A stretch of 64,000 nt of DNA from assembly GCA_951406725.2 (NCBI GenBank), contig OX597823.1, positions 21,080,001 through 21,144,000 of the forward strand. The letters run 5' to 3'. The DNA comes from Octopus vulgaris (lineage: Eukaryota). Below are positions 14,185 to 55,845 of this stretch, one piece after another (position 1 is the stretch's first letter; the number at the start of each line of letters is the position of its first letter). The position numbers and the translations under genes were made by a program. The notes beneath the pieces are model-generated. The model was not told the origin of the DNA. It searched no databases and saw nothing but the letters and a program-made list of their open reading frames with translations.

Positions 14185-14950
14185 TTTCTTTTCATGTGTT
14201 TCAGTCATTTGACTGCGGCCATGCTGGAGTACGGCCTTTAGTCGAATAAAACGATCTTAGGATTTATTCTTGGTAAGCTTAGTACTTTATGGGACGTAAT
14301 CACACCAACATCGGTTGTCAAGCGATTGTAGGGGGACAAACTCGCACACATACATACATACATATATATATATATATACGACGGCCTTCTTTCAGTTTCC
14401 GTCTACCATATCCACTCACAAGTCTTTGGTTGCCCGAAGATATAGTAGAAGACATTTGCCCGAGGTGCAATGCAGTGGGACAGAATCTAGAGGTATTTGC
14501 TTGGTAAGCAAGCTACTTTATTTCATCGAATTAACCACTGGGGTCCACAGGGTCAAATTTGCCTTTGCACCCTCCCAGTTCACCGCAGGCGTCACTCTTT
14601 GATTTAAGAGCCTGCACCCGCTATCCCCTAGCCTCGTTAAAAACACAATTCTCACTGCAAAGTGAGTCTTTACGCACAACCACAGGCAAGCAAATGTCTG
14701 GAGCAGAGTGGAGACTGTTGCTCACCAAAAAAATATTGAATACAGGGCAAAAAACTCCACTAAGCCCTCAAAAAATGCAGCAAACGCCTACCTGTAGTCG
14801 AAACACAAAGTTCAATATTTCACGAAAGACGTGACTTCTTCAATGCACAACACAATGGCACATGCGCACACCGACAACAAAAAATCATGGGAAGCCTTAA
14901 AGCCTCATGGGAAGCAAGTTACTTACCACACAGCTACTTCTGCTCCTGCG
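14185..14950 (-). mobile_element. tRNA-derived SINE family B, interrupted at 14519-14911
   Basis: Body at 14185-14518 and head at 14912-14950 align with the intact copy at 26332-26785. Confidence 0.85.
14519..14911 (-). mobile_element. internally deleted copy of the unclassified element at 53165-55441
   Basis: Its reverse complement matches 53205-53416, then 54427-54518, then the 3' end ATGAAATA. Flanked by AAGCAAG(C/T)TACTT at 14506-14518 and 14912-14924. Confidence 0.85.
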
Positions 14951-16603
14951 ATTTAATATAACATTCACTCTCTTCTACAAGACCAGCGACAGTGAGTCGC
15001 TACAAAAGTAGAAAGTAATTTGTGAATGGAATGAACTTTCATCACTAGCTAGTGATTAACACACGCTGAGGACGGGTAACCACCCAGAAACTCAAGTCCA
15101 TGTGTATCACATAAGGTTAGAGATGGGTGCGAGGACTTCCCATGCAAATACTAATCAGACACAAACTGTGTGCCGTTAGCCAGTTTGAGGAGATGTTTTC
15201 CTGAGGCTGAGGGTGAATTAAAAAGTAATGCCATATATATATATATATAGTGTGAGAGAGAGATGTATATATATGTATATATACATATATACATGTATAC
15301 ATATACATATATATATATATATATATATATATATATGTGTGTGTGTGTGTGTGTGTGTGTGTGTATATACACATATACATATGTGCATACATACACACAC
15401 ATATATATATTTAAATGCATATATATATTGATATATGTATGTATGTATGTGCGGAATTGTGTGCATGTATGTTTGTATGTATGTATGTATACACGCACAA
15501 ACACACACACACATGCATATAGTAGATAGAAAAAGAGAAAAATAGAAATAACAAAAAAATAAATAAATATATCAACCCCAACAACCCTAATACTATCTAC
15601 TACGCTTCTGTATCGGAGGCTGTCGTTTATGCTAATGTTTAGCCCATGGACGGGCAAACCTGTCTGTGATCAAAGGCATTATGTCTGAGATCATCCTTTT
15701 TTCAAATAATTCTAGAGCTATATAAGTTAATGTGACATTCCGTTATTTTAGACTGCAGAACGTGACCAGTTGCAACGAACATGGAAGGGTCTCCCCCGCT
15801 TATTTTTGTTTGTTTCTCCTTGATTGTCATGTTAAATGTTAATATATCAATTTGAATCTATAAATATATAAATAGTGACAGCTTCATGACGTAAACAACT
15901 TAAGGTGTTGTTGTATGGCTGTGCTGAGCAGTCTGGAGACGTGTATTATTCTTGTCATTTGACACCTAGCGGTTAGTAGAAGAGGGCTGCTTGATTTATG
16001 CGAGATTGTCATGAGGTATCAATGTTATGTTGGTGATAACAGATCATTTTACCACTGCGAACCATTGTGGACAAGTGTAGTGCAGGAGTTAGTTGATGTC
16101 AACGATGTTGATCCGATATCATACGAATCAATTAAGTTCAGATGGAGAAAAAGAGAGTGATAGTGAGGGTAAGAGAGGCAGACAAAAACCGGTGAAGGTA
16201 CGTTTCGTGAGAAACACCAATACTTATGTACATTTGGTAACTCACCAACACACACAATACACAAACATGTATTTATATACGGGTGTGTGCGTTAATGTAT
16301 GTGCCTCTGAGGGTGCGCGCGCTTGTGTGTGTGTGTGTGACTGCAGGAGACGGTGGAGGCGTGTGGTTACGATTCTCTGGCGTGTGGTTACGTTTTTCGT
16401 GTTCTTGAGCGAAACATCATTTCCTGTTTCTCTGCGATGTCTTCCGGATCTGACGTGTGGCGCGCTATGCAGCTATACAGACAATGTTGATTTGACGGAA
16501 AGAGTGAGCTACGGTAGAGCATAAACATTTGACTGGTTGTCACTCCATTCCCTATATGCTTGTCAAAAGAACAAATTAAATATATGAATATATAAATATA
16601 TAT

Positions 16604-53127: not shown

Positions 53128-55845
53128 GGCGTAGGAGTGGTTCTATGGTAAGTTGCGTGCTCACCTTACTTGACAGAAGAGTTCGCATTTCCATGCTACA
53201 TGGCAGTCACATCTTTCGACGTGAAATATTGAACGTTTAAAGCTCGAATAGAGGTAGGCGTTTGTTTTATTGGGGAGGGGCCCTTAGTGGAGGTTTCTTA
53301 TTCTGTTCTTAATAATTTTTGTTGAGCAACAGTCTCCACTTTGCTCCAGATATTTGCCTGCCTGTGGTTGTGCGAAAAGACTCACTTTGCTGTGAGAATT
53401 GTGTTTTGGAGGAGGCGTATCTCCTCCGCAAAAATTTGTTGGCTGTGAAAATTGTCTTGTCCATTTGTGGATTACCAGTTTGGATTAAGAAAAAGGTCGC
53501 CATCAGGGTGAGCGATTTTGCTTCTTTTTTTTTTTGAGCTCGGTAGAATTATTGTGTTTTATTTATATTACAGTATATTCTGCCCAGGTCTGGGGCATTT
53601 TCACTTACTCTTGGCGGTGTTGTGATTTTTCTTGTTAACAAGCAAGTGAAGAACTTCAAGGAGAATATCTTCATTACAGATATTTTGGAGAAAATTGGTG
53701 CTTGCAAGCTGTGCGTGGTTTTCAACCAGAAAACGTTGGAAGTACTTTACCAGGAGGATTATCAAGAGATTTGTAGGCTGCAAGATAGCTGGGAGTGCCG
53801 TGTAGCCCGAAAATTGTATTTTCTGCCGTGGAGAATAGTACAATATTTATTTATTTTTCTGAACTGCTGTCTTTCCTATCTTTTTGCTAAACAATTTTAG
53901 TTGGACTAGTATTTTATTTCTTCCAATTTTAGTTGAACTGTGTTTTTATTTTTATTGTGTTCAAATACTTTTTGTTGTTTTTGGTCGAGTGAATTTTTTC
54001 CTTGTTTGAACTGTATTTTATCGACATGGCAGATAAAATGATAAAAAATAAGACCACTGCTTTGGAGTGGCAGATTGTCCTACCCAAGCAGTGGTTAAAA
54101 GATATGGAGGAGGGGACGGTGGTGGTTAGAACTTACTCTAAAGTTCTTGATACCATTACCGTCTTCCCAAAACAAATCATTGAAAAAGAATTAAAAGACT
54201 TTGTCCCCTGTAAAATATATATCCCGGGGTGTCAGGCATGCAACGGCGTGGTTGCTGTTTGACACCACGTAAGAGGCTTGCAATTTTGCAAGTCAGCCTT
54301 TGGAGGGCAAGGAAATGTTGTTCCCTCCGTCATACTGCCGGAGGAAGGTGATAAGAACCTGGGTATGTGGGCTACCCCCGGGCATAGAGGCAGGTTGGAT
54401 AGGAGATACCGTCCAACGGGGCCGGGGGGATAGCGGGCGCAGGCCCTTAAATGTAAGAGTGACGCCTGTGGTCAACTGGAAGGGTGCAAAGGCAACTTTG
54501 ATCCTGTGTACCCCAGTGTCCGCAGGCAAAATGACCTCCAACTTTTTGAGGATGGCTGGTTCCAGGTATCCAGTGATTTTTGAGGGTCGCCCCGGGAGTC
54601 AGGACATATGAAGCAGGACTACCCCCGGGGCCGTGCTAAGGCTCCGGGGCGGGAAAAGTGGATGGTGCCCTCCGTTCTCCCATTGCAAGGAGAAACGGAA
54701 GTCATTGAGGTATCGACCTCAACGAGAAGGAAGAGAAAGGTGACGTTTCTCACTAAGAGACCTGCAGGTTGCGGGAGAGGAGAAGAACTCTTGAGGTGCG
54801 CCGAACGAAGAAGAAAAAAGAGAAAGAAGAGAAATGGGAGACGGTCAGCGAATGTCGCTGTGCCGCCGACCGAACCCAATGTTCCTCCGGTGGGAAATGT
54901 GCCACCGGAGCGAGAGGCTCAGTCAGTGGGAACTATGGCACTGACAGAGCAGGCTGAGACCTCTCTCTGTGAGGAAGAGGTTTTCATTTTCTCTCTCAAG
55001 AGAGGGCCTGTTAAGTTATACTTCGACAATCTTCTACACCGAAAGCGATATGACTCGACCTGTATAGACTGTCCAAGTTGTCCTCCGAAGGTGGCTGCGG
55101 AGGTCATAAATCAGAGAGAACTGATTGAGGTCAGGAAGACCTGTAACAAAGAATATTTTGTTTTCCTGGTCCGGGTCTGCCGATGCAGGGTTCTCTGCAG
55201 AGAACTTACTTAGGGGCTCGGATGAGGAAGACGAAGAATACTGAAAAATATATTTTTGTAATTTTTGAATTTTTGTGATTATAATTTCGATTTATATTGA
55301 TTTAAACTGAAGAGTGATTTTGAGGGGTTACCGGTCGGCGGGCACCGGTGCTCCTCCCATTTTTCATATACATTAATGTCTCTGTCCAGTCCGCAGCTAC
55401 CTTTATATGTGTTCGACCTTCATGGTCAAATCCATGAAATAAAGTAGCTTGCTTACGAACCACATGATTCCGATTTCAGTCCCACTGCGTGGCACCGTTG
55501 CCAAGTGTCTTCTACTATAGCCTCGGGCCGACCAAAGCCTTGTGAGTGGATGTGGTAGACAGAAACCGAAAGAAGCCAGTTGTATATATATGTGTGTGTG
55601 TGTGTGTGTGTGTGTGCGCGCGCGCGCATATATTTTTGTGTGTCTGTGTTTGTCCCCCCAACATCGCTTGACAACCGATGCTGGTGTGTTTACGTCCCCG
55701 TAACTTAGCGGTTCCGCAAAAAAGACCGATAGAAATAGTAAGAGGGTTACAAAGCATAAGTCCTGGGGTTGATTTGCTCGACTGAAAGCAATGCTTCAGC
55801 ATGGCCACATTGAAATGACTGAAACAAGTAAACGAGTAAAAGAAT
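53128..55845 (+). mobile_element. SINE family B split by a 2.3-kb insertion
   Basis: Head at 53128-53164; remainder at 55442-55845. Confidence 0.85.
53165..55441 (+). mobile_element. unclassified, probably non-autonomous retroelement with decayed ORF1-like frames
   Basis: Broken ORFs 54026-55213 (..RTWVCGLPPGIEAGWI.., Lys/Arg-rich tract); no RT or endonuclease motifs; 3' GACC-ttcat-GGTC hairpin then ATGAAATA; degenerate 13-bp TSD at 53150-53162 / 55442-55454. Confidence 0.7.

Follow-up and report, generated by a model that had tools for sequence, protein, structure and literature searches.

Two SINE copies are interrupted at the same base

The stretch analysed here, referred to as the window, comprises 64,000 nucleotides of Octopus vulgaris DNA (assembly GCA_951406725.2, contig OX597823.1, positions 21,080,001 to 21,144,000 of the forward strand; coordinates below are counted from its first letter) and contains two copies of a short interspersed nuclear element (SINE) whose heads are split by homologous inserts related to long interspersed nuclear elements (LINEs). 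On the plus strand, nt 1-36 of a SINE head (53129..53164) stop at 53164, the last base of a 5' target copy (53150-53164); a long insert follows (53165..55441), and the host SINE picks up from head nt 22 at 55442, beginning with the 3' target copy and continuing into its tail (55442..55848). On the minus strand, head nt 3-34 of a second SINE (14912..14943, with its 5' target copy at 14912-14924) stop at 14912, a short insert occupies 14519..14911, and the remainder of the host picks up at 14518 (14187..14518). An initial annotation had placed inserts in two SINE copies at these positions and had described an identical 3' junction and a duplicated 13-mer, all of which was borne out; in both inserts the 3' junction reads ATGAAATA then AAGTAGCTTGCTT, and the 5' target copy matches the 13-mer at 10 of 13 positions for the long insert and at 12 of 13 for the short one. 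Uninterrupted heads, as the annotation had also maintained, carry the motif once (26352, 17407 and, on the minus strand, 16990); the plus-strand SINE at 26334..26790 serves as the empty-site reference. The probability that one random insertion would fall on the same base in the same orientation was estimated at 1e-5 to 2e-4, for 58,000 to 1,000,000 heads.

Homology between the two inserts is confined to three pieces, namely 214 nt at 81% identity, 93 nt at 89% identity and the 3' terminus. The long insert is an old, full-length member of a non-autonomous LINE family, designated A, which has a first open reading frame (ORF1) only and is about 80% identical to its relatives; its single ORF (54026..55213, plus strand), open in relatives, is broken here by three in-frame stops and by frame shifts. 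Near its 3' end lies a hairpin with a 4-bp stem and a 5-nt loop (55415..55427, plus strand), common to an autonomous partner, F, and predicted to be a signal for reverse transcriptase (RT). The short insert belongs to a sister ORF1-only subfamily and has undergone an internal deletion, which leaves about 280 nt of 5' untranslated region, 93 nt of ORF1 and a short 3' terminus; no second case of this deletion was found among the best 40 of 724 candidates. Its start was found again in 8 of 29 related loci and is the normal start of the sister subfamily. The 5' ends of the inserts do differ, as the initial annotation had noted, the cause being that different subfamilies each possess their own full 5' end, rather than random truncation; the ORF1 inside the inserts had escaped it.

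Box-like motifs, read by eye against consensus motifs, suggest that the SINE head is of tRNA origin and contains A and B boxes; neither ARAGORN nor Rfam returned a tRNA match to it. The SINE resembles those of octopus. Rfam at gathering score likewise found nothing in 12 loci, neither a ribozyme nor a small-RNA target.

The inserts derive from an ORF1-only LINE lineage under selection

The genome (2.8 Gb in 227 contigs) was searched for relatives of the inserts. Full ORF1-only units were 2.0-2.3 kb long and held one ORF between two target copies and no ORF2, the HAL1-like arrangement in which ORF1 is encoded and ORF2 is not. Copies of family A displayed the hallmarks of retrotransposons lacking long terminal repeats (non-LTR), in that they had a fixed 3' end, 5' truncation of varying extent and target duplications, the last often of 14-16 nt in the truncated copies. 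The search for ORF1 gave 11,257 candidates; 150 of them were scored and about 50 opened. From the collected loci, 100 knuckle-bearing ORFs were reduced to 22 clusters. The zf-CCHC domain matched at E 0.1 or better in 22 of 22 ORF1s, and structure prediction on these 22 ORF1s (pLDDT 79.7) matched tandem RRM proteins, with a best Z of 9.4 and a root-mean-square deviation of 2.8 over 82 aligned residues. The ORF1 of intact relatives is predicted by this model to be an RRM-RRM-CCHC protein; the zf-CCHC matches and the predicted two-RRM fold agree with the type I ORF1 (RRM plus CCHC knuckle) described for Tx1-type LINEs (PMC5203782). A DNA transposon was considered and rejected: no transposase family matched in the ORF1s, the partner encodes an apurinic-type endonuclease (APE) and RT, and 5' truncations are present. 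Dada elements, which are DNA transposons that target small-RNA genes, carry a DDE transposase.

Eight of the 22 ORF1 clusters grouped together with a support of 100, at 56-78% identity, and were encountered in ORF1-only units alone; type E, the ninth of the ORF1-only kinds and represented by one copy, falls outside this clade. The ratio of nonsynonymous to synonymous divergence (dN/dS) was 0.08-0.25 in 15 of 15 pairs from six lineages, each represented by one copy and with dS near saturation. The ORF1-only lineage thus keeps its own ORF1 under purifying selection.

An autonomous LINE occupies the same SINE base

The initial annotation had proposed a search for an autonomous relative with APE and RT, and such an element was reached by walking along a tandem array; designated F, it is 5,438 nt long and occupies the same SINE base. 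F contains a knuckle ORF1 and an ORF2 with matches over the Pfam cut-off to Exo_endo_phos (PF03372), RVT_1 (PF00078) and zf-RVT (PF13966), the combination of APE, RT and C-terminal zinc finger by which the L1/Tx1 group is recognized. Among solved structures the best match is human L1 ORF2p (E 8.5e-67), with R2 at 5e-20, and its closest named RT relative, from Argonauta hians, is 64% identical. About 80 copies are at least 94% identical in the endonuclease, exact F 3' ends number 109 genome-wide, and ORF2 is open over 1,140-1,150 codons in 5 of 30 young copies. A contig of 1,941 nt spans the 5' half of F, although the run from which it came is only guessed to be RNA and low-depth DNA would look alike. 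An examination of the first 30 loci with zf-RVT, and of 37 more stretches, yielded other L1/Tx1-type families and not the partner.

In an RT tree of 65 rows, which contained no named Tx1 or L1 reference (protein searches for RT references returned almost only unnamed proteins), F was sister to a family whose own fixed target differs. All 6 copies checked of this sister family (5.37 kb, ORF2 of 1,140 codons; L154, L158-L162) lie at one position of a tandem repeat of about 360 nt and show a 17-nt duplication, and the family also builds a tandem array (L155-L157); the target has thus switched between the two sisters. Another related LINE was met in two copies, L142 and L148, which have a common 3' flank unlike both other targets, and possibly mark a third fixed target. 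ENA assemblies also yielded a large group of ORF2 proteins without names (P0025-P0099), about 1,150 residues long and 44-53% identical in the RT region, some of which have members in the hundreds.

Young F and C copies lie at the SINE target

Exact-pattern counts gave 58,235 uninterrupted SINE heads against 513 interrupted ones, or about 0.9%. Directly upstream of the first 30 of these 513, ORF1 was found in 15, ORF2 in 7 and no protein match in 8; all seven ORF2-bearing junctions were 75-99% identical to F. For F, the target was present at the 5' junction of all 30 young copies opened, preceded in 28 by a SINE head and in 2 by another element, and the 3' junction, visible in 28, ran on into the SINE in every one. 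When 30 of the 109 F 3' ends were chosen by position and blind to their flanks, a sample which overlaps with the first, 29 led into the SINE and one into the target followed by an ORF1-only element. Among 10 older F relatives (L259-L268), the 3' end was visible in two, both at the target, and not in the other eight.

The non-autonomous elements behaved similarly. In family C, 18 young copies from 20 loci ended in the SINE, and the junction was at the target in 28 of 29 loci that the ORF1 search had supplied and in 27 of 29 relatives of the short insert, with L279 and L283, which could not be oriented to the junction, scored as misses. A non-LTR retrotransposon is regarded as target-specific when one sequence type makes up more than 20% of its flanks (PMC4494074); the corresponding fractions were 30/30 for F and 13/28 for family A.

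Inserts and host SINEs have separate histories

Divergence among inserts was compared with divergence among the SINE pieces that flank them. F inserts differed by 1.0% and their host pieces by 8.5% (n=28, Mantel p 0.50); C inserts differed by 1.1% and their hosts by 9.8% (n=18, Mantel p 0.91). One SINE contains a tandem array of nine elements of four types, and a second array comprises at least six ORF1-only units plus F. These results bear on the two options left by the initial annotation. Amplification, as a unit, of one ancestral SINE-plus-insert chimera would account for the identical 3' junction, and for the single 5' junction that full-length copies have within each family. Divergence among the host SINE pieces, however, is about 8 to 9 times that among the inserts, with no correlation between the two, at least nine ORF1 clusters as well as F occupy the site, and truncated copies lie within complete SINE heads. 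Because young inserts differ by about 1% and their hosts by 8.5-9.8% without correlation, and because unlike families stand in tandem, a single chimeric master is rejected, and we regard it as scarcely credible. The incongruence of inserts and hosts indicates independent insertions, and the annotation's other option, a site-specific parasite of a SINE, is supported by the site use of F, the distance test and the tandem arrays.

An empty allele was also looked for in the contigs of four runs, on one young copy; the unique flank was unlinked across the SINE, and skip joints may stem from any SINE copy.

The arrays yielded further observations. In one of them, the 5' target copy of an ORF1-only element has itself received an insertion from a non-targeting L1/Tx1-type family (L217, the same place as L129), and this target copy stands on both sides of the newcomer. 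Units of about 100 nt lie between two target copies at L175:1400-1505 and L060:3091-3190; one consists of a 5' tip joined to a 3' tip, and the other is the 3' terminal part of an F-type element. Such units, and the window's short insert with them, are raw material for mini-elements.

The 3' hairpin and a probably element-borne 5' junction

A hairpin with a 4-bp stem and a 5-nt loop, 10-20 nt from the 3' end, is common to the ORF1-only elements and F; 125 of 162 candidate ends passed a strict hairpin test, in a set that includes redundant loci and some unrelated ends. Among 12 variants selected for possessing the hairpin, three of the four pairs showed two-sided changes, although the pairing as such follows from that selection. 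The RT presumably reads this hairpin. Several non-targeting families (L119-L135, L163-L165, L204, L213) have a similar 4-bp, 5-nt-loop hairpin before AATAAAG, and it may be a feature of this LINE radiation at large rather than of the SINE-targeting elements in particular.

The 5' junction was analysed in 41 full-length F and C copies. At target position 13, where the host deviated in 12 cases, the 5' copy had the element's letter in 12 of 12; it agreed with the host in 2 of 6 cases at position 11 and in 2 of 4 at positions 7-8. One extra base was present at six junctions. Older copies of family B mostly read TTAC, whereas young C and F read TAAC. From the letters at these target positions, the last 4-9 nt of the 5' copy likely come with the element, and would pair with the strand that has been cut. 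Gene conversion or recombination between SINE copies, in place of retrotransposition, could likewise leave the element's letters, not the host's, in the 5' target copy, as is often the case; such a mode of spread, however, is highly improbable, as the host's letters are retained directly 3' of the insert, off-target copies have their own duplications and 5' truncations, and the partner encodes APE and RT.

Interpretation

We consider it very probable that the window inserts arose independently, each when a member of an ORF1-only LINE lineage inserted at one base of the SINE head, and that they were likely copied in trans by F or its forerunners. Both are dead copies, fossils of a real, currently or recently active SINE-specific LINE system of L1/Tx1 type, whose ORF1-only satellites are of long standing. 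That F mobilizes the ORF1-only elements in trans is suggested by their common site, hairpin, age and arrays.

We propose that the APE endonuclease of F nicks the SINE just behind an A-box-like motif, and that its RT would then prime on the nick and copy RNAs which end in the common hairpin plus GAAAT, whether its own or those of ORF1-only elements. The target-like terminal bases of a full-length complementary DNA would anneal to the cut top strand, in keeping with the pattern at the 5' junctions, and the 5' copy of the resulting 15-16 nt duplication would be partly element-borne. The duplication renews the target, such that later elements of any family stack head to tail, as seen in the arrays. 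The ORF1 of the ORF1-only lineage, kept by purifying selection, would likely serve to package its own RNA. On this model the SINE would be a self-renewing, probably harmless landing pad, and an interrupted SINE likely loses its internal promoter.

Several findings weigh against this interpretation. The ORF1s of the ORF1-only clade and of F are only 25-30% identical, and blastn of the window's long copy against F gave no DNA match; the clade is therefore not a recent deletion derivative of F, and its link to F rests on the common site, the hairpin and a few terminal bases. The rows of hairpin variants were themselves selected for a hairpin. Three 5'-truncated F copies, which are without the presumed element-borne 5' sequence, have duplications of 0-7 nt, unlike truncated A copies. 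No tRNA gene with the target was present in the 30 loci examined of 47 that match the target plus one spelling of a tRNA-type B box, GGTTCGA, and the suggestion of tRNA targeting in the initial annotation is left unsupported. Lastly, the tally of 3' flanks which that annotation had proposed gave a divided result for family A, a feature it had not foreseen; of 28 distinct loci chosen by 3'-end similarity, with L026-L028 scored once for their one common flank, 13 were on site, 1 was ambiguous, 1 was at another SINE position and 13 were elsewhere. Family A specificity was therefore loose, at least for short copies.

The divergence of the ORF1s allows that the ORF1-only elements, while site-specific, are driven by some other autonomous family, unseen or extinct, with their type of ORF1. 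Their ORF1s are indeed a separate clade, with full support of 100, far from all autonomous ORF1s sampled, and the sampling extended to the 150 scored and roughly 50 opened candidates noted above. Nevertheless, every ORF2-bearing junction among the first 30 interrupted heads resembled F, and F and family C are of the same young age (about 1% divergence), have the hairpin stem in common and are stacked together; a different driver is, in our judgement, distinctly improbable.

The off-target copies of family A raise another possibility, that the enzyme reads a short motif only, approximately GT followed by AAGTA, or else some ancestral small-RNA gene, the SINE being simply the commonest carrier. 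These copies mostly start with AAGT, AAGC or AGTA, and are mostly short; long copies were on site in 11 of 12 cases and short ones in 3 of 16 (Fisher p 3e-4, with classes set by eye after seeing the data, and with L020, in which a target start is followed by other sequence, counted as on site in this test only). Against it, young F ends were at the SINE site in 30 of 30 copies, truncated ones included, which would be unlikely from a 7-base motif (a judgement made without a genome-wide motif count), and no tRNA gene turned up in the 30 loci examined of 47. We therefore hold a short-motif or small-RNA target to be unlikely. The family A pattern would mean either that an older enzyme was looser, or that 5' pairing favours full-length copies on site, or that long off-site copies have been lost.

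One family A copy (L005) was found at a second AAGT site, near SINE nt 85, with an exact 15-nt duplication. The loose target of family A at L009, L010, L022 and L024 resembles the 5' splice-site consensus, probably by coincidence. A second short interspersed repeat, separate from this system, is present in the window at 460-697, 12006-12212, 18924-19152, 21487-21725 and 27323-27486.

Taken further, the data can be read as a three-tier parasite system, a joint reading which we put forward tentatively and hold to be somewhat doubtful as a whole. In it, an active LINE has one base of a SINE as its sole home, and an old, diversified ORF1-only lineage is maintained by selection on its own RNA-binding protein. 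The elements carry a few SINE bases at the 5' end which staple the 5' junction, with transcription likely starting in the donor's target copy, and each family would bear the letters of whichever SINE subfamily prevailed in its day. The ORF1-only protein might, by analogy, aid targeting, as the HeT-A Gag helps TART.

A mobile target with fast turnover lets one ask how an endonuclease tracks a target that drifts. Dated insertions number in the thousands, young copies are nearly identical and the arrays are ordered, so that both the reason why a non-autonomous element keeps an ORF1 and the manner in which the LINE 5' junction is joined become testable. In octopod repeat annotation, SINE/LINE chimeras of this kind would be mis-built as SINE or LINE subfamilies.

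Relation to known systems

Known targets of sequence-specific LINEs are ribosomal RNA, small nuclear RNA (snRNA), microsatellites, and DNA or LTR transposons. Neither a SINE-targeting LINE nor site-specific ORF1-only satellites of such a LINE were found in the literature searchable outside Repbase and subscription journals; each part of the system has a precedent, but no publication with a SINE as the target, or with this combination of parts, turned up. A recent annotation of octopus repeats reports 13 active L1-Tx1 families, and its main text does not use the terms 'target site', 'nested' or 'insertion preference', although its repeat library may hold the families described here (PMC13282606). 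The accessible parts of PMC8967140 and PMC3747384 mention Tx1 only in general terms.

HAL1 (half-L1) is a non-autonomous LINE which encodes ORF1p only and has had more than one origin (PMC5753468), as ORF1-only elements have here, where E is a second type. HAL1 derives from mammalian L1, and the relevant part of the source mentions no fixed target (PMC5753468), whereas the octopus elements have an RRM plus CCHC ORF1 and are site-specific. HAL1 proper, with its mammalian L1-derived ORF1 of coiled coil, RRM and C-terminal domain, was rejected as an identity on the basis of the CCHC knuckle and of homology to the genome's own L1/Tx1-type ORF1s.

HeT-A and TART of Drosophila, an RT-less partner and an RT supplier, form mixed head-to-tail arrays (PMC2173066), and resemble the octopus elements in that both kinds of partner accumulate in one kind of place. 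Theirs are chromosome ends, where they serve the host, and their Gags are described as very similar (PMC2173066); here the place is an interspersed repeat, and the ORF1s are 25-30% identical.

R2 differs in its target, which is 28S rDNA. It has one ORF and a restriction-like endonuclease. It is alike in that target-like sequence in the element RNA is thought to stabilize integration, and in its variable top-strand junction (PMC5035012, PMC4494074).

Keno (U2) and Kibi and Koshi (microsatellites) are sequence-specific LINEs of the Tx1 clade (PMC4494074) which, like F, a putative member of that clade, reside in multicopy targets; their targets are host genes or simple repeats. The initial annotation had also named Dewa (tRNA spacers) and Mutsu (5S). 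A likeness of target is seen with Tx1 of Xenopus, which targets Tx1D, and with the crocodilian Tx1-Mar, Tx1-8_Crp, Tx1-4_AMi and Tx1-9_AMi, which likewise target mobile elements (PMC4494074). These have a fixed site within another mobile element, tandem insertions which sandwich the duplication, and non-autonomous passengers (SINEU-3) at the same target; their targets, however, are DNA transposons or LTR elements rather than a SINE head, and their passengers are snRNA-headed SINEs rather than protein-coding elements of 2 kb (PMC4494074). In specificity, young F (30/30) equals or exceeds SINEU-3 (313/347; PMC4494074).

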